Positions 2 through 25,557 of a stretch of DNA of 25,557 bases are shown here, piece after piece. The notes beneath the pieces were generated by a model that worked only from the letters and a program-made list of their open reading frames with translations, was not told the DNA's origin and made no database searches. The stretch covers positions 1 through 25,557 of IMG/VR virus record IMGVR_UViG_3300045280_000043. The stretch is one strand, 5' to 3'. The stretch comes from a virus. Its lineage: Duplodnaviria > Caudoviricetes. Position numbers and translations under genes: made by a program. How positions within the stretch are numbered: the first letter of the stretch is position 1; the number at the start of each line of letters is the position of its first letter.

Positions 2-859
2 CGCCGGCTCGCGGAGGAGGGCGGCCCCGTGCCGGCCGAGCGGGTCGCGGCAGCCCTGCGGGACAGCGGCCGGGTGCTCGGCAGCGCGGCGCTCGCGGAG
101 GTGGAGCCGGCCGTCCGCGCGGAGATCCTGGGCGCCGGACCCCTGCAACAGCTGCTCGACGACCCCGAGGTGACCGACGTCCTCGTGAACGGACCGGGCG
201 AGGTCTGGGCGGAGCGCGCCGGGCGGCTGGTGCGCGTCCCGGTCGACCTGGGCGACGCGGCGCGGGTCCGCGAGCTGGCCGTGCGGCTCGCGGCCGCGGG
301 CGGTCAGCGGCTCGACGACGCGCGCCCGGCCGCCGACGCCCGGCTGCCCGACGGCACCCGGCTGCACGCGGTGCTGCCGCCCGTGGCCGACGGCTGCACG
401 CTGCTGTCGCTGCGGGTCGTGCGGCACCGCGCCTTCACGCTCGGCGAGCTCGTCGGCAGCGGCACGCTGGCGCCGCAGGTCGCGGACGTCCTGCGCCGCC
501 TGGTGCGCGCCCGCGCGAACCTGCTGGTCTCCGGGGCGACCGGGACCGGGAAGACCACGCTCCTGTCCACCCTGCTGTCGTGCGCCGACCCCGGGGAGCG
601 CATCGTCTGCGTCGAGGAGGCCGGCGAGCTCGCACCCCGGCACCCGCACGTCGTCCGGCTGCTCGCCCGGCGCCCGAACGTCGAGGGTGCCGGCGGCGTG
701 GACCTCGCCGACCTGGTGCGGGAGTCGCTGCGGATGCGCCCCGACCGGGTGGTCCTCGGGGAGTGCCGCGGCGCCGAGGTCCGCGAGGTCCTCGGGGCAC
801 TCAACACGGGGCACGACGGCGGCTGCACCACCGTGCACGCGCGCAACCTCGGTATCTAG
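2..859 (+). pseudogene. tadA: TadA/CpaF family (Rv3659c-like) Flp/Tad pilus secretion ATPase, 5' fragment interrupted by prophage; true start lies upstream of the window
   Basis: Frame is open from base 2. Motifs: GAGPLQQLLDDPEVTDVLVNG, RLDDARPAADARLPDGTRLHAVLPP, Walker A GATGTGKTT, Asp box CVEEAGEL, LRMRPDRVVLGECRG (Walker B), His box NTGHDGGCTTVHA. Family similarity stops at TVHA (expected TVHAN…), followed by RNLGI-stop. Confidence 0.9.
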
Positions 860-865
860 TCCCGG
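815..865. other. Putative attL hybrid site; crossover probably within 836-841 (CACGCG)
   Basis: TadA homology ends at codon 839-841 and the integrase stop is at 856-858. Weak dyad TGCAC-GC-GCGCA at 834-845. The exact crossover cannot be fixed without attR/attB. Confidence 0.65.
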
Positions 866-2391
866 GGGATGGGCCGCGTCGGTTCCGGGCTCGGCGCCCA
901 CGCTCCGACGACGCGCACGTCGCACCCGCGCGCACCGTCGCGCCGGACGACCCACACCGTGCACAGGCCCCGCAGCATCGGCGCGAGGTCCTCGGCCGGC
1001 GCCGACCCCCACGTCTCGAGCAGGCGCGCCGCGGCCATGGCGTGATCCGCGCTCGCGGAGGCGCGCCGAGTGAGCCGCTCGAGCGTGGCCTGCGCTGCGC
1101 TCTGCTCGGCGACCAGCGCGTCGCGCGCCGCTTCGTAGGCGGAGGTCGGCACGATCCGCCGCGCGTGGTCCACGGTGAGCTGCGCCAGCGCCCGAGCGGC
1201 GTCCGTGACCGCCCGAGCCGCCCGATCGGCCTGCACCCGAGCCGCGGCGGACGATTGCTCGGCGCTCGCGGACGCGGCGCCCATCTGCGCCTCGACGGTC
1301 GGCAGCCACGCCACGACCGCGGCCTCGGCGACGGAGTACCTGACGGACGAGCGCCGGCACCCTGCGCGCAGGCACGAGAGCCTGGGCGCCTGGGTGCCCC
1401 GCTTGCGGGTCTTCTCCCGCTCGTAGGTCAGCGTGTACCCGCACGCCCCGCAGCGGGCGACCCCGGACAGCGGCGTCGACGCGCGCCGGTGCCGCGGCGC
1501 GACCGTGGTTCGGTCGGCCCGGGCGTCGAGGTAGGCGTCCCACGTCGCGGTGTCGATGACCGCCGGGTGCGCGCCGGGCAGGTAGGTCCGCTGCGGGCAG
1601 CGGCCGACGTCGGTCCCGGCGGGGTGGCGGGCGGTGCAGTCCGGGTCGTGCACGCGCAGCAGCCCGGCGCCGAAGCCGCTGTCGAGCATCCGGCCCAGGG
1701 TGTCGTGCGAGTACAGCCCGCCGCGGCTCGTGCGGATGCCGAGCGCGGTGAGCCACGTGCACAGCGCTCGCAGCCCGGCGCCGGCGACGTACCGGCGATA
1801 GGCCTCCGCCAGGATCGGCGCGGTCTCGGGGTCGGGCTCGAACCGGCCGTCGTCGCCCGGCCGGTACCCGAAGCGCTGCCCGCCCGAGTGCGGCAGTCCG
1901 GCCCGGCGCCGGCGGGCGATCGTGGCCTTCCATCCCTCGCCGATGGCCTCGGCCCGGTAGGCGTGCATCTCGGCGAGCATGCCGCGCTGGAACCGGCCCG
2001 CCGCCGTCGTCTGGTCGATCGGCTCGGTGGCCGACTCGATCCGCCCGCCCGCGGCCTCCACCTGGTCGAGCGCGACCGCCCACCGCAGGCGGTTGCGCGC
2101 GGTGCGCGACAGCTCCCAGACGACGATGACGTCGACCTCGCCGGCCACGACCCGCGCGATCGCGGCGTCGAGCCGCGGCCACCAGGCGGACCGAGCCCGC
2201 GACCCGGACTCGTCGATCCCCTCGATCGTGTCCACGACCTCGTACCCGCGCCGGGCGCAGTGCTCGCGCGTCGCGTCGCGCTGCAGCTCCGGCGCGATCA
2301 TCCCCTCGCGCTCCTTGGACACCCGGATCAGGAGCAGCGCCCGCTCGGCGCGCTCCGGCACCGCCCGGAGCCGAGCCTCAGCCCGCGACAC
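856..2391 (-). CDS. int: Large serine recombinase (phage integrase)
   Basis: N-terminal resolvase motif LLIRVS…PELQR, DVIVVWELSRTARN, recombinase domain (RFGY, HPAVIDTATW), zinc ribbon LSGVARCGACG…LSC…C, coiled coil. GTG 2391 chosen as the likely start (short overlap with immA); the ORF track extends to 2436. Confidence 0.93.
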   Translation of the reverse strand: MSRAEARLRAVPERAERALLLIRVSKEREGMIAPELQRDATREHCARRGYEVVDTIEGIDESGSRARSAWWPRLDAAIARVVAGEVDVIVVWELSRTARNRLRWAVALDQVEAAGGRIESATEPIDQTTAAGRFQRGMLAEMHAYRAEAIGEGWKATIARRRRAGLPHSGGQRFGYRPGDDGRFEPDPETAPILAEAYRRYVAGAGLRALCTWLTALGIRTSRGGLYSHDTLGRMLDSGFGAGLLRVHDPDCTARHPAGTDVGRCPQRTYLPGAHPAVIDTATWDAYLDARADRTTVAPRHRRASTPLSGVARCGACGYTLTYEREKTRKRGTQAPRLSCLRAGCRRSSVRYSVAEAAVVAWLPTVEAQMGAASASAEQSSAAARVQADRAARAVTDAARALAQLTVDHARRIVPTSAYEAARDALVAEQSAAQATLERLTRRASASADHAMAAARLLETWGSAPAEDLAPMLRGLCTVWVVRRDGARGCDVRVVGAWAPSPEPTRPIPRD

Positions 2392-2797
2392 GAAGATCCC
2401 GCCCCCGCTGCGTCGGGATCCCAGCCCGGAGCGCATCCGCCCGCCACGTCTCGACGACGCTCGCCGTCACCCCGAGCTCACGCGCCAGCGCCCCCGGGTG
2501 CGGCCCCACCAGCCGCTCCGCCGCGGCGTAGGCCGACGGCGAGATCAGCAGCCGCGCGCCGTGCCGGTCCGCGAGGCGCTCGCGGTGCTTGTGCTCGCGC
2601 GGGTCGTCCGTCCAGGTGTGCCCGTAGTGCGCGTGCCCGAGCTCGTGCGCGAGCGTGACGCGCTGGACGGTCTCGGTCCGGCGAGGGTTGAGCAGGATCA
2701 GCCCGCTCGAGTGGTACTCGCCGGCGCGCCGGCCGAGGTCCCGCCACGCGACCCGCACCCCTCGCTCCGTCGCGAGGGCGAGCAGCTCCTCCATCAC
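2378..2797 (-). CDS. ImmA/IrrE family Zn metallopeptidase (anti-repressor protease)
   Basis: QRVTLAHELGHAHYGH (HExxH), E-x-x-A-D-x-x-G-A-x-L-L-I, C-terminal LARELGVT. Located between repressor and integrase. Confidence 0.9.
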   Translation of the reverse strand: MMEELLALATERGVRVAWRDLGRRAGEYHSSGLILLNPRRTETVQRVTLAHELGHAHYGHTWTDDPREHKHRERLADRHGARLLISPSAYAAAERLVGPHPGALARELGVTASVVETWRADALRAGIPTQRGRDLRVAG

Positions 2798-2819: not shown

Positions 2820-3191
2820 CTACGGCTGGTCCTGCTGCGCCTCGACCTCGGCGTCCGGGTCGTACCCCTCGGCCGGGTCGGACGCCGCCGGGTTCAGCGT
2901 GATGAGGTCGTCGATGTCGTCGTCGCGATCGCGCGTCGGGAACGCAACGATCGTGGCGGCGGTGGACCGCGCGCGGATCTCCTCGGCGCGCGCCATGAGC
3001 TGGTGCGGCGCGATCCCGAAGGCGTCGGCGACGAGCGCGAGCTGGTCGATCTTGATGTCGCGCTCGGCGAGGAGCATGCGCATCAGCGTGCGCTCGGGGA
3101 TGCCGGACGCGGCCGACAGCTCCTTGACGGTCATCCCGGAGATCGCCCGCTCAGCGGAGATCGCCTTGGCCATCGCCTCGTTCATGTCCAC
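2820..3191 (-). CDS. XRE-family HTH immunity repressor (ImmR/CI-like, no S24 peptidase domain)
   Basis: AERAISGMTVKELSAASGIPERTLMRML…IDQLALVADAFG HTH with an acidic C-terminal tail; divergent from the Cro-like gene. Confidence 0.88.
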   Translation of the reverse strand: MDMNEAMAKAISAERAISGMTVKELSAASGIPERTLMRMLLAERDIKIDQLALVADAFGIAPHQLMARAEEIRARSTAATIVAFPTRDRDDDIDDLITLNPAASDPAEGYDPDAEVEAQQDQP

Positions 3192-3250: not shown

Positions 3251-3279
3251 TTGACCACTGCCCAAACGGGCAGTACGTT
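3251..3279 (+). promoter_or_regulatory. Rightward early lytic promoter (-35 TTGACC, 17 bp, -10 TACGTT), predicted leaderless mRNA
   Basis: TTGACC 3251-3256, TACGTT 3274-3279, 17-nt spacer. ATG 3287 is 8 nt downstream, with no SD. Confidence 0.75.
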
Positions 3280-3286
3280 CGCCCAC

Positions 3287-3553
3287 ATGGACAGCACGCT
3301 GAACTACCAGCAGGCGCTCGCAGTCGAGGTGAACTCGGCCATCGAGCGTGCCGGGAAGTCCGCCCTCAGCGTCGCCGAGGGCACCAAGATCCCCCGCACC
3401 ACGCTCCTCCGTCGCCTCGCCGGCGACTCCCCGCTCACCGTCATCGAGCTCGCGAAGATCGCGACGTTCATCGGCGCCTCGCCCGTCGAGCTCCTCAGGG
3501 CCGTCGACGACACCCGCACCCCGAACGCGGCCGCGGAGCGGAGGGCGTCGTGA
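3287..3553 (+). CDS. Cro-like HTH DNA-binding protein
   Basis: SALSVAEGTKIPRTTLLRRLAGDSPLTVIELAKIATFIG XRE-type HTH; first gene of the rightward operon. Confidence 0.85.
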   Translation: MDSTLNYQQALAVEVNSAIERAGKSALSVAEGTKIPRTTLLRRLAGDSPLTVIELAKIATFIGASPVELLRAVDDTRTPNAAAERRAS

Positions 3554-6266: not shown

Positions 6267-6841
6267 CCGCCCTGACGCGGCGAGAGCAGGTGCTGCTGCT
6301 CGACACCATCGGCCCGGGCTGGATGCTCACATGGATGCTGCTCGACGACGCAGGCATCGACCACGTCCGAGCGAGCTGGCTCGGCGGGCACGTCCGGTCG
6401 CTCCGCTCGGGGATCGCCGACGACGGCCGCACCTTCTTCCAGGTCGGCAAGCGCGGGGTCGCGATCGGGAAGATCGAGCCGGAGCCCGCGGGGTTCGTGG
6501 CAGCGGAGACCATCACCTGGGCGAGCATCCGTGCCCACCGGGCGTCGGTCCCGGCTCCCGTGATGGCGGAGATCGCCGCCGCGCGCCGGGCGAGCGCCGA
6601 GCACGCCTACACGTCGTACCCGAGGTTCGAGCCCCCGGCCGACCCGGCCGCGTACTCCGACGCCTACTTCGAGCACCAGCGCGAGTTCGCGGAGCCCTGG
6701 TACGCCGAGTCGAACCGCCTCACGCGCGCGCTCGCCGCCGCAGTGCTCTGCGCATTCCCCCTCGCTGCAGCCCCCGTGCCTGACGGCGAGCCGCTCGACC
6801 TTCTCGCGCTCCTCGCGCAGCTCGAGGCGGTACCCGCATGA
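6263..6841 (+). CDS. Hypothetical phage protein
   Basis: GGAGG SD, ATGA coupling, protein-like composition. Confidence 0.7.
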   Translation: MTALTRREQVLLLDTIGPGWMLTWMLLDDAGIDHVRASWLGGHVRSLRSGIADDGRTFFQVGKRGVAIGKIEPEPAGFVAAETITWASIRAHRASVPAPVMAEIAAARRASAEHAYTSYPRFEPPADPAAYSDAYFEHQREFAEPWYAESNRLTRALAAAVLCAFPLAAAPVPDGEPLDLLALLAQLEAVPA

Positions 6842-7815
6842 CCGCCCCGTACTTCGCCGACGACCAGGTCACGCTCTGGCACGGCGACGCACTCGCAGTG
6901 CTCCGCGACATGCCGGCTGCCTCGGTCGACTGCGTCGTGACGAGCCCGCCGTACTTCGGGCTCCGGGACTACGGCGTCGCCGGCCAGCTCGGTGCCGAGG
7001 AGACGCCGGCGCAGTACGTGGCCGCGCTGCTCGCCGTGCTTACCGAGGTGCACCGGGTGCTCACCGACGACGGCACGCTCTGGCTGAACCTCGGCGACAC
7101 CTACGCGGGCCGGGCGAACGCTGGGCGCGCGTTCACGAAGAACCGCGGCCGCAACGTGCAGCGGGTCGGGTACCCGGAGCAGCGGAACATGACCGCGCAC
7201 GCTCCGTACAAGTCGCTGCTCGGCATGCCCTGGCGCACCGCCCTCGCTCTGATCGATGCCGGGTGGGTGCTGCGGAACGAGGTCATCTGGGCCAAGCCGA
7301 ACGGCATGCCCGAGTCGGTCCCGGACCGCCTGGCGGCGAAGCACGAGCACGTGTTCCTGCTGACGAAGGGTCCGACCTACTGGTTCGACCTCGACGCGAT
7401 CAAGGTCCCGACCACGGGCGCGGTCCCCGGGAACTCCCCGCAGGCCCTCGCCCGGTACGGCGAGGCCGCCGTCGGCGAGGCCGGCCGGCGGTTCGGCGGC
7501 AACCCGGGCAGCACGCTCCTCGACCCGCATGACACCCGCAACCCCGGCGACGTCTGGACGATCCCGACACAGCCCTTCCCCGGGGCGCACTTCGCTGCGA
7601 TGCCGCTCGCGCTGGCCGAGCGGTGCGTGCAGGCGGGCTGCCGCCCCGGCGGCGTCGTGCTGGACCCGTTCTCTGGCTCCGGCACTACCGGTCTCGCAGC
7701 GGCACGCCACGGCCGCCGCTACGTCGGCATCGACCTGAACGCGGACTACCTCGACCTGTCGCTCCGGACCCGCCTGCGCGACCGGACGCTCGACTTCGGG
7801 GAGGCGTCCGCGTGA
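6838..7815 (+). CDS. DNA amino-methyltransferase, beta class (SPPY suggests N4-cytosine), orphan
   Basis: Catalytic motif VTSPPY precedes SAM-binding VLDPFSGSGTT; also GTLWLNLGDTY and HFAAMP. Confidence 0.93.
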   Translation: MTAPYFADDQVTLWHGDALAVLRDMPAASVDCVVTSPPYFGLRDYGVAGQLGAEETPAQYVAALLAVLTEVHRVLTDDGTLWLNLGDTYAGRANAGRAFTKNRGRNVQRVGYPEQRNMTAHAPYKSLLGMPWRTALALIDAGWVLRNEVIWAKPNGMPESVPDRLAAKHEHVFLLTKGPTYWFDLDAIKVPTTGAVPGNSPQALARYGEAAVGEAGRRFGGNPGSTLLDPHDTRNPGDVWTIPTQPFPGAHFAAMPLALAERCVQAGCRPGGVVLDPFSGSGTTGLAAARHGRRYVGIDLNADYLDLSLRTRLRDRTLDFGEASA

Positions 7816-14250: not shown

Positions 14251-16011
14251 GTGGCCTCGGTGGTGATCCCGGAGCGCGCGATGACCTACGCGGTGGTGTG
14301 GGACGACCTGGGGCTGCTGAAGATCGGGCGTGCGTGGAAGATGCACCGGCTGCGGCGCCTGACGGCCTCTGGCGGGCGGGTGGTGATGCTCTGGCGCGAC
14401 ACCCCGGCGGGGTTCGAGCGGTACGCGCTGCGCGAGGTCGGGCGGCACTTCGAGCGGGCGTTCGCGAGCGCGGACGAGTCGCTCGGGGTGCTACCGCACG
14501 GGCGGGGCTGGACAGAGGTGTTCCGGGTGACCGCGGGGTCGCTCGGGCACGCGATGAAGATGATCTTTCGAGGAGTGGCGCGGTATGAGCGTGACCAGCA
14601 GGCACCGCAGCGTGCCGCCGACGATGTTCGCGGACGAGCTGCTGATGGAGCTGCCGGCGGCGGTGCGGCTGACGGGGGTGGGCCTGCACTTCTACGCGGA
14701 CGACGAGGGGCGGGCGCCGGCGAACCCGGCGCTGCTCAAGGGGCAGCTGTGGCCGCTGGACGACGAGGTGACCCTCGACGTGATCGACGAGCACCTGGTG
14801 GCGCTCGAGGACGCCGGCTACATCCAGCTCTACACCGCGGGTGGTCGGACGCTGCTGGCGGTCGCGGAGTGGCCGGCGACGGACCGCGGGAAGCCGTCGC
14901 GGCTGCCGCCGCCCCCGCCTCGCGAGGGTGTCGCGACGTCCTCGCGAGGCTCTCGCGAATCTCTCGCGGTAGTGGAGGAGAGGAAGGAGAGAGGAGGGGG
15001 TGCAGGAGTGCAGGGGGGTGCAGGAGGAGGCGGGGAGAGCGCGGGAGGGGCGCCCGCCGCGACCACCGACGAGCCCCGACCGTTCTGCGCCAAGCACATG
15101 CCCTACGGGACCGACACCCCCTGCGGTCCCTGCGGTGGGGCCAGGAAGCGACACGACCTCTGGCTGCAGGACCAGGTGACCGCAGCAGTAGCCGACCTCG
15201 ACGGGAGCGCCGACCGATGACCACGTTCGACCACTGGGCCGTCGACCGGGAGGACCTGTACCGCTCGGTCCGCGAGCTCGTGGACCTGCTGCCCGAGCTC
15301 GTCGCGCTCGTGCCGGAGCAGGCCGCCGCGCTCGAGTCCGAGCCGGGTCTGAGCGGCACGACCCGGATCGCCCCGCCGATGCCGTGGAACGCGGCCGCGG
15401 CGCTGATGTTCTACGAGATCCACGGCGACGCCCGTCGGTTCGAGTCGCTCCTGACGATCCGGCTGTCCCGCACGGCGAAGTTCCGCGGCGGGTCAGGCAG
15501 GCACACCGTGGAGTGCCTGCAGGGATTGCCCCTGCTCGTCGAGCACGGCCGCGCGAGCGGCTTGCCCGACCTCGACCTCGTGGACGTCACGCAGGCGCTG
15601 CTGACTTGGCCGAAGCGGGTGCGGGTGCTGCTCGGCCAGGAGCGTGACGGTGACGCCCGACCGACCCCGGTGCCCGGCGGGGCGTGCTGCCCGGAGTGCA
15701 GCCGGGACCTGGTGCTGTCGGCCGGCTGGCGCGCGCTCGAGGCGAACGCGTCCGCCGAGTGCCCGTCGTGCCGCGACGACGAGACCGGCCGGCCGCTGCG
15801 GTGGCCGGTCACCGAGCTGGTCGGTCTGCCGCAGCACGAGGAGCTGCTGACCGCCGAGGACGCACGGCACCGGTTCGACCTGTCGACATCGGTCCTGCGG
15901 GTGTGGAAGCACCGCGGCCGGATCCACCCCTACGGCCGGAACGACGCCGGTCGTCCCCTGTTCCGGGTCAGCGACATCCGCGCGCTCATGACCGCCGCCG
16001 AGCAGCCGTGA
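14251..16011 (+). CDS. GIY-YIG/T5orf172-like N-terminal domain (~14251-14590) whose frame reads through to 16011
   Basis: TYAVVW…LLKIGRA…R…E…GWTEVF pattern; GGAAGG SD fits GTG 14251. No in-frame stop before 16009. Confidence 0.4.
   Translation: MASVVIPERAMTYAVVWDDLGLLKIGRAWKMHRLRRLTASGGRVVMLWRDTPAGFERYALREVGRHFERAFASADESLGVLPHGRGWTEVFRVTAGSLGHAMKMIFRGVARYERDQQAPQRAADDVRGRAADGAAGGGAADGGGPALLRGRRGAGAGEPGAAQGAAVAAGRRGDPRRDRRAPGGARGRRLHPALHRGWSDAAGGRGVAGDGPREAVAAAAAPASRGCRDVLARLSRISRGSGGEEGERRGCRSAGGCRRRRGERGRGARRDHRRAPTVLRQAHALRDRHPLRSLRWGQEATRPLAAGPGDRSSSRPRRERRPMTTFDHWAVDREDLYRSVRELVDLLPELVALVPEQAAALESEPGLSGTTRIAPPMPWNAAAALMFYEIHGDARRFESLLTIRLSRTAKFRGGSGRHTVECLQGLPLLVEHGRASGLPDLDLVDVTQALLTWPKRVRVLLGQERDGDARPTPVPGGACCPECSRDLVLSAGWRALEANASAECPSCRDDETGRPLRWPVTELVGLPQHEELLTAEDARHRFDLSTSVLRVWKHRGRIHPYGRNDAGRPLFRVSDIRALMTAAEQP
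14585..15220 (+). CDS. Phage replication initiator / replisome organiser (winged-helix N-terminus, lambda O-like layout)
   Basis: RSVPPTMF…RLTGVGLHFYADDEGR…LLKGQLWPLD…LEDAGYIQLY; GAGGAG SD; internal iterons; C-terminal CxxH…CxxC. Confidence 0.8.
   Translation: MSVTSRHRSVPPTMFADELLMELPAAVRLTGVGLHFYADDEGRAPANPALLKGQLWPLDDEVTLDVIDEHLVALEDAGYIQLYTAGGRTLLAVAEWPATDRGKPSRLPPPPPREGVATSSRGSRESLAVVEERKERGGGAGVQGGAGGGGESAGGAPAATTDEPRPFCAKHMPYGTDTPCGPCGGARKRHDLWLQDQVTAAVADLDGSADR
14918..14970. repeat. Iteron-like array: five TCGCGR cores at 11-bp period (putative phage origin)
   Basis: TCGCGA at 14920, 14931, 14942, 14953 and TCGCGG at 14964, followed by a purine-rich tract at 14971-15050. Confidence 0.75.
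15217..16011 (+). CDS. Zn-ribbon plus C-terminal MerR-like HTH protein, probable late-gene regulator
   Basis: GGGAG SD, ATGA coupling; CPEC…CPSC; LLTAEDARHRFDLSTSVLRVWKHRGRI…PLFRVSDI. Last early gene before the late promoter. Confidence 0.78.
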   Translation: MTTFDHWAVDREDLYRSVRELVDLLPELVALVPEQAAALESEPGLSGTTRIAPPMPWNAAAALMFYEIHGDARRFESLLTIRLSRTAKFRGGSGRHTVECLQGLPLLVEHGRASGLPDLDLVDVTQALLTWPKRVRVLLGQERDGDARPTPVPGGACCPECSRDLVLSAGWRALEANASAECPSCRDDETGRPLRWPVTELVGLPQHEELLTAEDARHRFDLSTSVLRVWKHRGRIHPYGRNDAGRPLFRVSDIRALMTAAEQP

Positions 16012-17021: not shown

Positions 17022-17474
17022 GTGTCACGGACTCCGCCGCCTCGTCGGTGTGCGCTGTGCGGCGGGCCGATGCCGGCGCCGAAGGGCACGGGCCGGATGG
17101 CGAAGTACTGCTCGGTCGACTGCCGACGCCGCGCGAACCGCGGGGCCCCGCCGCGCAACCCTGCGACCGAGGCCGCCCGGGCGCCCGCACAGCCCGCCGA
17201 GGCGGTCCCCGCGATCTCCGCCCCGCTCGAGGTCCCGGGCACCGGCCGGCGCCTGGACTACCTGCAGCGCCACCGCGACCGGCTCGACCGGCTGCTCGAG
17301 AACTGCCCCGCCGACAAGATCGTCCCGGTCTCCAAGGAGTTCCGCGACGTGCTGAACGAGATCGAGACGCTCACGGCCACGGCGCCGCCCGAGGCAGGGA
17401 GGCGCGATGAGCAGCCCGGCGCTCGCGGAGGCGGCGGAGGGCCACGTCGATCGTTCGACGCTGCCGCTATCTGA
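17022..17474 (+). CDS. Terminase small subunit with N-terminal Zn finger
   Basis: GGAGG SD; CALCG…GR…YCSVDCR; helical LQRHRDRLDRLL…SKEFRDVLNEIETL; ends FDAAAI; directly precedes and overlaps the large terminase. Confidence 0.7.
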   Translation: MSRTPPPRRCALCGGPMPAPKGTGRMAKYCSVDCRRRANRGAPPRNPATEAARAPAQPAEAVPAISAPLEVPGTGRRLDYLQRHRDRLDRLLENCPADKIVPVSKEFRDVLNEIETLTATAPPEAGRRDEQPGARGGGGGPRRSFDAAAI

Positions 17475-19017
17475 GGTCGCCCGCCACGTGGTCATCCCCG
17501 AGGGGATCGTCGACACCCTGTGGTTCCAGGTCGAGGAGCGGTGCCGGGAGTTCGGCGACACCTTCGACACCTGGCAGGACGGCCTGGGGCAGATCATCCT
17601 GGGGGTGCGCGAGGACGGGACGTGGGCCGCGACGGTCGGCGGGGTGGTCATCGCGATCCCGCGGCAGGTCGCCAAGACGTTCATCGTGGGCCGGATCGTG
17701 GTGGCCCTGTGCACGATCTTCCCGAACCTCACCGTGCTGTGGACCGCGCACCGCGGACGCACGTCGACCAAGACGTTCGAGTCGCTCAAGGCGATGGTGC
17801 GCCGGCGAGCGGTCAAGCAGCACCTGCAGCCGAGCCGCAACGACGGCATCCGGGGCACGAACGGCGAGCAGGAGATCCGGTTCCGCAACGGGTCGGTGAT
17901 CATGTTCGGGGCCCGCGAGCAGGGCTTCGGGCGCGGCTTCGACGAGGTCGACATCGAGGTGTTCGACGAGGCGCAGATCCTCACCGAGAGCGCCCTCGAG
18001 GACATGGTCCCGGCCACGAACCAGTCACGGTGGCGCCACGGCGCGCTGCTGTTCTTCATGGGCACCCCGCCGCGTCCGCGCGACCCGGGCGAGGAGTTCG
18101 CGAACCGCCGCAAGGACGCGCTCGCCACCAAGCCGGACGGCGTCGTGGTCGCCGAGGCCGGCAACACCCTGTACGTCGAGTGCTCCGCGGACCCGGACGT
18201 CGGCAAGCCTGGCGGCCCGAGCCTGGACGACCCTGAGCAGATCAAGAAGGCGAACCCGTCCTACCCGCACCGCACGCCGCCGATGTCGGTGGCGCGGCTG
18301 CGCGCGCAGCTCAAGTCCGACGACTCGTGGCGCCGCGAGGGCCTGGGCGTCTGGGACGAGGACACCGCGGCGACGGTCATCAAGTCCTCGCAGTGGGGCG
18401 ACCTCGCGATCGACGCCGACATCGCGCCGACCGAGGGGCCGGTCGCCTACGGCGTGAAGTTCTCCGCCGACGGCGAGCGGGTGGGGTGCGGTGTCGCCCG
18501 CCTGGCGGAGGACGGCAGCGAGCACGTCGAGGCCCTCGGGGTCGCGCGCACGTCTGACGGCACCGCGGCGCTGGTCGCGTGGCTCGCGGCGCGGGCTCAC
18601 CTCGGGCGGATCCTGATCGACGGCAAGGCCGGCGCCGGGGACCTGCTGAACGAGCTGCGCACCGCGGGGGTGCCCCGCCGGCGGGTGGCCGTCATGACCA
18701 CCGACGAGGCGATCACCGCGCACACCGGGTTCCTGCGGGCGGTGCACGAGGGGTCGCTGACCCACATCGCGCAGCCGGGCCTCGACGCCGCGGTCAAGAT
18801 CGCCGGCAAGCGGAAGATCGGGCAGGCCGGCGGCTGGGGTTGGCAGGCCGTCACCTCGGACGGCGACGTGACGGCCCTGGACGCGGTGACGATCGCCCGG
18901 CACGCGGTGGTGACCGACAAGCGCGCCACCGGCGCGGGTCGCACCCCGGGCGGCGGGCGCACTGCCGGCGGCAACAGGACATCGAGCGGACGACGGGCGG
19001 GGGTGGTGGTGTCGTGA
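17407..19017 (+). CDS. terL: Terminase large subunit
   Basis: Walker A variant IPRQVAKT, VLWTAH, Walker B IEVFDEAQ, coupling motif MGTPP, ANPS, RREGLGVW. Start codon uncertain. Confidence 0.92.
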   Translation: MSSPALAEAAEGHVDRSTLPLSEVARHVVIPEGIVDTLWFQVEERCREFGDTFDTWQDGLGQIILGVREDGTWAATVGGVVIAIPRQVAKTFIVGRIVVALCTIFPNLTVLWTAHRGRTSTKTFESLKAMVRRRAVKQHLQPSRNDGIRGTNGEQEIRFRNGSVIMFGAREQGFGRGFDEVDIEVFDEAQILTESALEDMVPATNQSRWRHGALLFFMGTPPRPRDPGEEFANRRKDALATKPDGVVVAEAGNTLYVECSADPDVGKPGGPSLDDPEQIKKANPSYPHRTPPMSVARLRAQLKSDDSWRREGLGVWDEDTAATVIKSSQWGDLAIDADIAPTEGPVAYGVKFSADGERVGCGVARLAEDGSEHVEALGVARTSDGTAALVAWLAARAHLGRILIDGKAGAGDLLNELRTAGVPRRRVAVMTTDEAITAHTGFLRAVHEGSLTHIAQPGLDAAVKIAGKRKIGQAGGWGWQAVTSDGDVTALDAVTIARHAVVTDKRATGAGRTPGGGRTAGGNRTSSGRRAGVVVS

Positions 19018-20444
19018 CCTCGCAGACGATCCGGCTCCCCGGCCTGGACGAGGACGACGAGCGCACGCTGAACCACCTGGTGGAGCAGCTCGACCGGCAC
19101 CAGGGCACGAACCGGCTGCTCGACGCGTACTACGACGCCGAGCGGAACATGCGCAAGATGTTCGGCGGCGTCGTCCCGCAGCAGTACTACCGGCTCGGCC
19201 TGGCGCTGGGCTGGTCGTCCAAGGGCGTCGACGCCCTGGGGCGGCGCTGCAACCTCGAGCGGATGGTCTGGGCCGATGGCGACCTCGACTCCTCCGGGTT
19301 CCGCGAGGTCTGGGACGGCAACCGTGTCGAGTCCGAGGTCGACCAAGCCATCACCGACACCCTGGTGCACGGGCTGTCGTTCGGTGTCGCCTCCAAGGGC
19401 GGGGAGCGCGAGCCCGGCGGGCTGCTGCACTTCTACTCCGCGGTCGACGCCACCGGCGACCGGAACCCCGTCACGCGCCGGCTCGACAACCTGCTGATCG
19501 CGCGCGAGCGCGGGGAGCAGAACCGGATCACCGCGCTGTCGCTGCTACTGCCCGGCCGCACGATCGCCGCAGCGATCGACGGCGGCAAGTGGGAGATCCT
19601 GGACGAGTCGGAGCACAAGTTCGGGGTGCCGGCCGCTCCGCTGGTCTACCGCCCCCGCCTGCGCCGCCCGATGGGCCGCTCCCGGCTCACCCGCCCCGTG
19701 CGGGGCCTGCAGGACGCCGGCGTGCGCGCCCTGGTGCGTCTCGAGGGGCACATGGACATCTACGCCTACCCCGAGTTCTGGATGCTCGGTGCGGACCCGT
19801 CGATCTTCAAGAACCCCGACGGCACCGCGATGGCCGAGTGGATGCAGCGCCTCGGTCGGATCAAGGGCATCCCCGACGACCAGGACCTCCTCAAGGACGA
19901 GAACCCCCTGGCCCGGGCGGACGTGAAGAAGTTCGACGCGGCATCCCCGGCGCCGCACCTGTCGGCGCTGAACGTGTACGCCAAGGCCTTCGCCCGCGAG
20001 CTGTCGCTGCCGGACTGGTCGGTCGCCCTGACCGACGTCGCGAACCCGACCAGCGCCGAGGCCTACGACGCCGGCCAGCACGAGCTCATCGCCGAGGCCG
20101 AGGGCACGATCCGCGAGCTCACCCCCGCGCTGCGCCGGCTGGTGCCGATCGCGATGGCGATGCAGTCCAACATGGACACCGTCCCGACGCAGTGGTCGTC
20201 GATCGACGCGCAGTGGCGCGACCCGCGCTACCAGTCCCGCGCCGCGCAGGCCGACGCGGGGTCGAAGGCGCTCGCGGCGGTCCCCGAGCTCGCGCAGACC
20301 GAGGTCGGGCTCGAGCTGCTCGGCCTGACCCCGCAGCAGATCGAGCGGTTCCAGTCCGAGCGGCGCCGGGCGCGCGGCACCGCCACGATCGACGCGCTGC
20401 TCGCCGCGGCCCGGCAGGGCGGCACCGGTGGTCTCGCCGGCTGA
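19014..20444 (+). CDS. Portal protein (SPP1 gp6-like)
   Basis: Follows TerL; YYD, GWSSKGVDALGRR, RPMGRSR, NPTSAEA, WRDPRYQSRAAQADA, LELLGL. Confidence 0.9.
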   Translation: MTSQTIRLPGLDEDDERTLNHLVEQLDRHQGTNRLLDAYYDAERNMRKMFGGVVPQQYYRLGLALGWSSKGVDALGRRCNLERMVWADGDLDSSGFREVWDGNRVESEVDQAITDTLVHGLSFGVASKGGEREPGGLLHFYSAVDATGDRNPVTRRLDNLLIARERGEQNRITALSLLLPGRTIAAAIDGGKWEILDESEHKFGVPAAPLVYRPRLRRPMGRSRLTRPVRGLQDAGVRALVRLEGHMDIYAYPEFWMLGADPSIFKNPDGTAMAEWMQRLGRIKGIPDDQDLLKDENPLARADVKKFDAASPAPHLSALNVYAKAFARELSLPDWSVALTDVANPTSAEAYDAGQHELIAEAEGTIRELTPALRRLVPIAMAMQSNMDTVPTQWSSIDAQWRDPRYQSRAAQADAGSKALAAVPELAQTEVGLELLGLTPQQIERFQSERRRARGTATIDALLAAARQGGTGGLAG

Positions 20445-21763: not shown

Positions 21764-22678
21764 GTGGCAACCCTGACCACGAGCGACGTCACCCTGCCCA
21801 CGCAGATCGTGGACGGGATCGTCACGAAGACCAAGACCGGATCGACCATCGCAGCGCTGTCGGGCCAGGAGCCCATGCGGTTCGGTGACGTCACGATCGT
21901 GACGTTCGACGACGACCTGACTGCGGAGTTCGTCGAGCAGGGCGGGGCGAAGTCCGAGGACGACGCCAAGCCGTCGAGCGTGGTCGCGAGCCCGCACAAG
22001 GCCGTCGTGAACTTCCGCACCAGCGACGAGTTCCTGATCGCCGACGAGGACTACCAGCTCAAGATCCTGGACGAGTTCGAGGACAAGTGCGCGCTCGCCC
22101 TGGCCCGCGGCCTGGACCTGGGTGCGTACTTCCGGATCAACCCGCGCACGGGCACCGCGATCACCTCGTGGACCAACTACCTCAACGCGACCACGAACCG
22201 CGTCGAGATCACCGCCGACTCCAAGCCGGACCTCGACTTCGAGGCCGCCGCGGGTCTGGTCATCGGCGACGGGTACCGCCCGACCGGTGCGGCGTTCGAC
22301 CCGTCCTACGCCTGGACCCTGTCGACCGCCCGCTACAACGACGGCCGCAAGAAGTACCCCGAGCTCGGCCTCGGGGTCGACCTGTCCGCGTTCGAGGGAC
22401 TGGCGGCCTCGGTGTCCAGCACCGTGTCCGGCAAGGCCAAGGACGGCGACGCGACCGACAACAAGGTCCGGGCGATCGTCGGGAACTACCAGCAGGGCAT
22501 CCGCTGGGGCGTGCAGCGCACGTTCCCGTTCCGGATGCTCGAGTACGGCGACCCGGACAACACCGGGCGCGACCTGGCCGGCCACAACGAGGTCCTGTTC
22601 CGTGCGGAGGTCATCTTCGCCTGGCACGTCTTCGTCGACCAGTTCGCGGTCATCGAGGACAAGGTGGCGAACGCCTGA
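21764..22678 (+). CDS. Major capsid protein (HK97 fold)
   Basis: GAGGAGG SD; AEFVEQGGAK, SDEFL, LARGLDLG, DLAGHNEVLFRAE; 304 aa, after scaffold. Confidence 0.92.
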   Translation: MATLTTSDVTLPTQIVDGIVTKTKTGSTIAALSGQEPMRFGDVTIVTFDDDLTAEFVEQGGAKSEDDAKPSSVVASPHKAVVNFRTSDEFLIADEDYQLKILDEFEDKCALALARGLDLGAYFRINPRTGTAITSWTNYLNATTNRVEITADSKPDLDFEAAAGLVIGDGYRPTGAAFDPSYAWTLSTARYNDGRKKYPELGLGVDLSAFEGLAASVSSTVSGKAKDGDATDNKVRAIVGNYQQGIRWGVQRTFPFRMLEYGDPDNTGRDLAGHNEVLFRAEVIFAWHVFVDQFAVIEDKVANA

Positions 22679-25516: not shown

Positions 25517-25557
25517 CCCCCGCCCCCTGATCGCGCGCGGGGCCGGCACAGCCGGGT

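Follow-up and report, generated by a model that had tools for sequence, protein, structure and literature searches.

Sequence analysis revealed that the window (the whole 25,557-nt stretch of viral DNA analysed) begins inside a host tadA gene of the ssd-tad locus, which is cut by a prophage carrying a large serine integrase. At the sequence level, the insertion site, the crossover, two complementary in-frame gene halves and a full set of virion genes could be demonstrated, and the best reading of the window element is an ordinary temperate siphophage-type prophage with a large serine integrase. We favour, with a probability of about 0.55, the explanation that its integrase lineage has been selected to disable DNA uptake, like the prophages found in comGA, comYC and comM. 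The integrase inserts the prophage at a near-palindrome of the tadA His-box codons, presumably leaving a lysogen without full-length TadA and hence without a Tad/Flp pilus. Selection would favour such a site since the integrase lineage profits when DNA uptake and recombination are shut off; otherwise the host could delete the prophage using DNA from prophage-free relatives. With the pilus disabled, the prophage would thus resist deletion by transformation, and tadA would become whole again only upon excision, normally en route to lysis. Precedents for prophages or other elements in comGA, comYC, comM and ssbB are described in the accessible text of PMC12378983 and PMC12637031.

In the window, frame 2-859 codes for a TadA/CpaF ATPase (PF00437, E 3e-49) and ends with GGCTTVHA-RNLGI-stop. 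This confirms the statement of an earlier note on this DNA that the TadA frame is broken, closes 5 codons past TTVHA and receives no replacement 3′ end. A natural end of TadA at this point, which that note had named as an alternative, is ruled out, as about 92 residues follow TTVHA in 10/10 aligned full-length homologues and the six full-length members of the 90% cluster of the window's TadA (identity 278-279/280) also run on. Besides these six, the 15 members listed for the cluster comprise five 5′ parts with a phage-derived ending, three 95-aa 3′ stubs and one member cut by its contig. The phage-derived ending is identical in four other cluster members and differs by a single change in one more. 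A split tadA of the cluster, P0261, ends with TVRARNLGI and has an altered His codon in its att core, which could influence excision. The proteins closest to those of the window come from Cellulomonas, and wherever a member of either 90% cluster carries a species name, it is C. hominis. For the window's own strain, a 95-aa 3′ stub (P0249) was found on a similar contig set as an identical integrase (P0243), and we infer that in this strain the element is flanked by attL and attR and by complementary tadA halves.

A family-wide TadA search of 301 genomes found, among the best 150 of 992 matches, the top match truncated in one genome, G293, in which two tadA halves lie 39,708 bp apart with a related prophage at the same site. 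The earlier note had predicted that the right prophage end would carry attR, the 3′ half of tadA and then further tad genes, and that the halves could be joined and aligned to an intact tadA; both predictions were borne out in G293. Its element is flanked by attL and attR, and the complementary, undecayed host halves join in frame to 396 residues, 391/395 of which are identical to the intact relative P0123 (TIGR03819 score 459.6, cut-off 373). With ssd upstream of tadA, and tadB, tadC, flp (DUF4244), tadE and an Rv3654c-like gene beyond attR, the locus has the ssd-tad order of the Rv3654c-Rv3660c type. Family matches were obtained to TIGR03819, PF00482 (tadC), PF14029, NF041390 and TIGR03816, and a match to TIGR03815 came from a partial piece and scored below the cut-off; tadB, without a family match, was assigned by position. 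No second intact TadA that could cover the function was found in G293, where the other ATPase matches are 31-36% identical. These comparisons support an insertion that is clean, precise and in principle reversible.

The G293 prophage is a mosaic relative of that in the window: 17,762 of the 24,728 window prophage bases could be aligned, for the most part with 86-97% identity. Identity over the att-plus-integrase part is 95.9%, versus 99.3% nucleotide identity for the host-derived 5′ part of tadA. The last phage gene of the G293 prophage is directed toward tadB, and no sigma-70 promoter or terminator was found near attR by a scan that suits high-GC hosts poorly. The tad genes past the prophage may, as the earlier note proposed, have been cut off from their promoter. 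At this prophage end (L173:15051-17686), an unnamed 130-aa ORF pointing at tadB and an ANTAR protein were observed beside attR, together with a DUF433/PIN toxin-antitoxin-like pair and an RHH protein.

The attachment site was located by comparison of the window with G293, the left limit of attL being assumed by symmetry. The attL phage arm of the window is identical in G293, and an 11-bp core is common to both G293 prophage junctions and the host site. The attP rebuilt from G293 is a palindrome of about 50 bp that adjoins the integrase and is symmetric at 24/26 positions around the central dinucleotide AC, equivalent to window 830-831. Therefore, the crossover falls in the second Thr codon, 10 nt ahead of the point where the frame seems to break; the break reported in the earlier note stands, but its position after 841 does not, and the VHA codons in the window derive from the attL phage arm. 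In 80 kb of G293 the 26-nt phage arm has a single inverted match of at least 19 letters (24/26), located precisely where the 3′ tadA half begins, and on this comparison a chance origin of the att match is excluded. A resemblance of the phage arm to a host gene, which we take to be altronate-dehydratase-like, was at chance level and was rejected.

Of 337 family genomes, G293 alone yielded exact matches to the att arms, and the 32 further matches in this set, with 3 mismatches each, lay in conserved genes. No match to the att-arm pattern was obtained in viral contigs or in metagenome contigs, sets that possibly do not cover the records closest to the window. The His-box site in tadA, used in 1/337 family genomes, seems to be restricted to a single species cluster. 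The stretch is present in 24 sequencing runs, all of them possible sources, and the assembled contigs of four were examined. In 4/4 of these runs, the contigs, which drop rare variants and so could miss an excised form, include one 43,950-nt contig that starts from window 812 and is unbroken across 830, the position at which such a form would be joined. The window record itself stops inside the prophage at 25557, and the contig of the four runs extends past this point.

The features of the window are listed in Table 1. The integrase has Resolvase, Recombinase and Zn-ribbon domains, and its stop codon shares bases with the terminal part of the attL phage arm. PHROG matches identified terminase, portal, protease, scaffold and capsid genes in the window; the G293 prophage has a tape measure gene, and its endolysin was picked out by eye, the scanned piece having no PHROG match. 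A phage N6/N4 DNA methyltransferase was observed at window 6838-7815. The small ORFs near the prophage ends had no family match, and a scan of the window and G293 showed no SOS-box-like motif.

Table 1. Coordinates of the features identified in the window
Feature	Position	Strand	Evidence or remark
tadA 5′ part, host-derived (ssd-tad locus, TIGR03819 type)	2..829	+	PF00437; start upstream of window
attL (host arm, central AC 830-831, 11-bp core 830-840, phage arm 832-857)	804..857		G293 comparison
TadA frame end, phage-derived (VHA, 5 more codons, stop 857-859)	832..859	+	Junction comparison
Large serine integrase, 511 aa from GTG 2391 (ORF open to ATG 2436)	856..2391	-	PF00239, PF07508, PF13408; phrog_95
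ImmA/IrrE-like metalloprotease (putative anti-repressor)	2378..2797	-	PF06114; phrog_87
ImmR/CI-like HTH repressor	2820..3191	-	PF13443; phrog_4583
Cro-like HTH protein, divergent from repressor	3251..3553	+	phrog_4583
Replication initiation protein	14585..15220	+	phrog_2149
Terminase large subunit	17407..19017	+	phrog_9
Portal protein (ORF bounds; true start probably downstream)	18579..20444	+	PF05133; phrog_104
Major capsid protein	21764..22678	+	phrog_10

Loci of related integrases were collected with a 37-integrase alignment, which yielded 80 genome and 80 viral loci, and with a closer 15-integrase alignment, which yielded 73 metagenome loci; a direct integrase scan of viral contigs found nothing. 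Target genes were counted in the 75/80 genome loci in which 250 nt or more follow the integrase stop, the 5 without downstream DNA being dropped, and these 75 are non-independent, with three genomes giving 2-3 loci each and kin sharing sites. A Tad or competence gene adjoins the integrase in 41/75 loci, at no fewer than 10 different positions. By gene order and pilin motifs, by which loci were matched to the M. luteus clusters, 21 loci lie in the second tad cluster at the pilin, the tadC end or tadE and 6 in the tadA of that cluster, while in the ssd locus flp is the target in 6 and tadA in 1; comM accounts for 4 and cpaE of the SAF-cpaE locus for 3. The remaining 34/75 loci adjoin other genes, among them xth, methylpurine glycosylase, napA, glutaredoxin and acyl-CoA ligase, or have no assignment. 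When the same query set, here without a cpaE query, was applied to the metagenome loci that continue for 300 nt or more downstream, 12/45 matched, duplicates being kept. The target-hitting integrases belong to Micrococcaceae, Microbacteriaceae, Nocardioidaceae, Promicromonosporaceae and others.

Both prophage ends were found in 12 genomes besides G293, 33-51 kb apart and with complementary host halves. The att finder was weak alone, since a wide search window gave top matches that were mostly chance. A narrow search placed a convincing tad or comM pair in the top two for 11/27 composites besides G293 (L013 by eye), pointed to a non-tad gene in G218 and G238 and gave none in the rest; the L036 pair came from the wide search. 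Head or packaging genes were present in 14/14 sampled elements besides G293, 13 of them with a terminase match, in a virion-gene scan covering 86/140 candidate ORF pieces and one extra. No sampled element is a domesticated remnant.

A quick tree of 74 integrases (SH-aLRT only), leaving out 7/80 loci (5 without downstream DNA and 2 extra G005 copies), required 20 changes among 8 target groups, with a minimum of 7 and a shuffled mean of 33.7. The pilin-region label requires 10 changes, 8 of them forced by starred branches; in this labelling the 3 cpaE loci stand as ‘other’ and L013 as pilin though it lies in the tadC end, and L033 adjoins tadE. The tree indicates that targets cluster by kinship yet have switched many times, and the scattered labels may perhaps reflect fewer gains with losses. 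Because the window's integrase shares no more than 48% identity with any other member of the tree, the clade argument reaches the tadA site only indirectly. The earlier note had proposed a search of integrase homologues for the same target codon; none was found to use it, and other sites are used instead. Within the genus, 4/110 genomes have a related integrase.

Actinobacterial natural transformation has been studied mainly in M. luteus, in which both tad clusters are needed (PMC4322843), as is, in the accessible text of PMC8467076, the SAF gene beside cpaE, whose loss drops transformation ~10,000-fold. The integrase targets include all three loci required for M. luteus transformation, and recurrent targeting of one pathway, the mark of competence-disrupting elements, is seen in the 41/75 loci. 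ComM is a cytoplasmic protein, and therefore the common theme of the targets is DNA uptake, not surface exposure. In G293 and 4 close relatives one TadE hit each was obtained, indicating a single tad locus versus the two needed in M. luteus; comEC was found in 5/5 of these genomes, with one or two other PilC/T2SSF loci. In view of the latter, this host may be able to take up DNA independently of Tad, and another type IV pilus could import DNA. Thus the suggestion of the earlier note that the prophage blocks DNA uptake gains comparative support from the related targets, but the single tad locus and the other pilus loci of the host weigh against it.

Disruption of competence genes by mobile DNA is a known habit, and on our analysis the window's case appears to fit it. 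Table 2 of a 2025 review (PMC12378983, accessible text) includes prophages in comGA, comYC, comFA, ssbB and comK and elements in comM; the review states that Flp/Tad systems are outside its coverage. Prophages in comGA (Staphylococcus pseudintermedius) and comYC (streptococci, Lactococcus) likewise cut a pilus assembly ATPase or a pilin, and relatives of the window's prophage also target comM, like the known comM elements; in contrast to the comGA and comYC prophages, the target here is the actinobacterial Tad/Flp system, and its role in host competence is putative. According to the accessible part of Durrant et al. 2022 (PMC10083194), T2SSE (PF00437) is enriched among the targets of large serine recombinases (15/1069 vs 2/908) and competence is the top GO term among targets. 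The supplement rows available from that study make no mention of TadA, CpaF or pilus, and TadA may be among its 15 T2SSE target clusters. Our literature search, with subscription papers mostly outside its scope, found no paper on tadA- or flp-targeting actinophages; PMC12482185 deals with Flp pilins encoded by prophages, and tad goes unmentioned in PMC10023795. The case is less novel than suggested earlier, since a prophage in a competence pilus ATPase gene, comGA, is already published (PMC12378983, accessible text) and T2SSE-family genes are known to be enriched targets (PMC10083194).

The interest of the finding lies mostly in the clade-wide match of integrase targets to actinobacterial competence loci. 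That one integrase group repeatedly lands in the same three loci and in comM suggests, indirectly, that many members of the phylum use Tad/Flp for DNA uptake, and it may explain the apparent non-transformability of some lysogenic strains. The data also provide a new integrase-att pair and point to environmental strains in which the idea could be tested directly, such as the Arthrobacter, Ruania and Klenkia strains of L048, L036 and L013.

The site might instead be a neutral landing pad, conserved, non-essential and slightly palindromic, with pilus loss incidental and tolerated. In keeping with this, the host site is symmetric at 5/6 bases beside the crossover, tadA is conserved (the best 150 of 992 matches from the 301 family genomes are near full-length except in G293), and 34/75 loci adjoin other genes or have no assignment. 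The characterised integrase of Streptomyces phage SV1, of the same group as the window's (41.5% identity over 57% of the query), has a similar arrangement, with attP directly downstream of the integrase and inverted repeats around a short core, but it integrates in SCO4383, a 4-coumarate-CoA ligase gene and not a pilus gene (accessible text of PMC4068962). However, the host site is symmetric at only 9/24 positions overall, and the related integrases use at least 10 unrelated target sequences in four loci of one pathway, which by our estimate make up ~0.3% of a 4-Mb genome, so we consider incidental loss unlikely. Less probable still is the proposal that lysogeny removes a receptor, the Tad pilus being that of the phage itself or of its competitors. 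Pili act as phage receptors elsewhere, e.g. in Caulobacter, and pilus-building genes, with both pilin genes included, make up 37/41 of the pathway loci. But this option of the earlier note fails to explain the 4 comM loci, comM not being a surface gene, and the elements at these sites have differing terminase, portal and capsid families, so that a shared receptor is not implied.

The earlier note also offered an excision-controlled switch. On such a model, the prophage would leave without lysis under some signal, allowing pilus assembly, and would later return to its site. Such active lysogeny is known from the Listeria comK prophage and the Bacillus elements skin (sigK) and SPbeta (spsM), serine-integrase elements with both gene halves intact, for which excision has been demonstrated to be regulated and to spare the lineage from lysis. 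The window's prophage likewise has a serine integrase and interrupts a gene with both halves intact, undecayed and in frame, but its regulated excision is hypothetical. It also has an ImmA/ImmR-type control module, and a sister element at a non-tad site is both circular (36 kb) and chromosomal in one Promicromonospora assembly (L007/L010). Against a switch, the 14/14 other sampled elements with head or packaging genes include no cryptic remnant, and intact and split tadA occur side by side in one species cluster, so the element is not fixed, unlike a domesticated switch. Neither a cryptic element nor fixation in a lineage, the signs of domestication, was found, although this is non-decisive, the phage in Listeria comK being full-size as well. 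None of the small ORFs near the ends, which lack family matches, was identified as a recombination directionality factor. Pneumococcal ImmAR prophages, like the window's, carry an ImmA-like protease and a repressor beside the integrase and excise transiently as pseudolysogens, but they prevail at sites sparing competence genes, whereas the window's prophage sits in a pilus ATPase gene (PMC12637031, accessible text). Gene-disrupting sites in pneumococci are dominated by C1-type rather than ImmAR-type prophages; the same text argues that ImmAR prophages are scarce there because transient restoration defeats the block. With no positive evidence for it and all sampled elements being virion-encoding prophages, we regard the switch as the least probable of these accounts, and equally improbable its extension, that ImmA/ImmR-type prophages are lysis-free on/off switches of Tad-pilus DNA uptake across actinobacteria. 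If it were true, the sites would trace a phylum-wide competence machine of both tad clusters, SAF-cpaE and comM, possibly also the neighbouring Rv3235-family gene and a second ssb.

Several further loci were observed during the comparison. The Promicromonospora sp. NFX87 assembly contains a 36,452-bp ‘plasmid’ that is 99.98% identical over 12 kb to a chromosomal prophage (L007/L010) and is probably its excised circle. In five viral records (L254-L258), all fragmentary, an ssd-type tadA is cut in Walker A and no serine recombinase domain is present; this is a second tadA site, used by another kind of element. Genome G005 has three copies of the integrase region (L072, L074, L076), two of them followed by the 3′ part of tadA, representing either a tandem prophage or an assembly artefact. 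The integrases of L020 and L023, outside the count of 41, adjoin a DUF6459 gene, in L020 beside the SAF-cpaE-HTH cluster, which in M. luteus has an effect on competence; the DUF6459 gene is a candidate competence gene. DNA repair forms a second target theme (L017, L055, L051, L037, G218 and G238), comprising xth, methylpurine glycosylase, ssb and a gene that, from its motif, we take to be LigD-polymerase-like.
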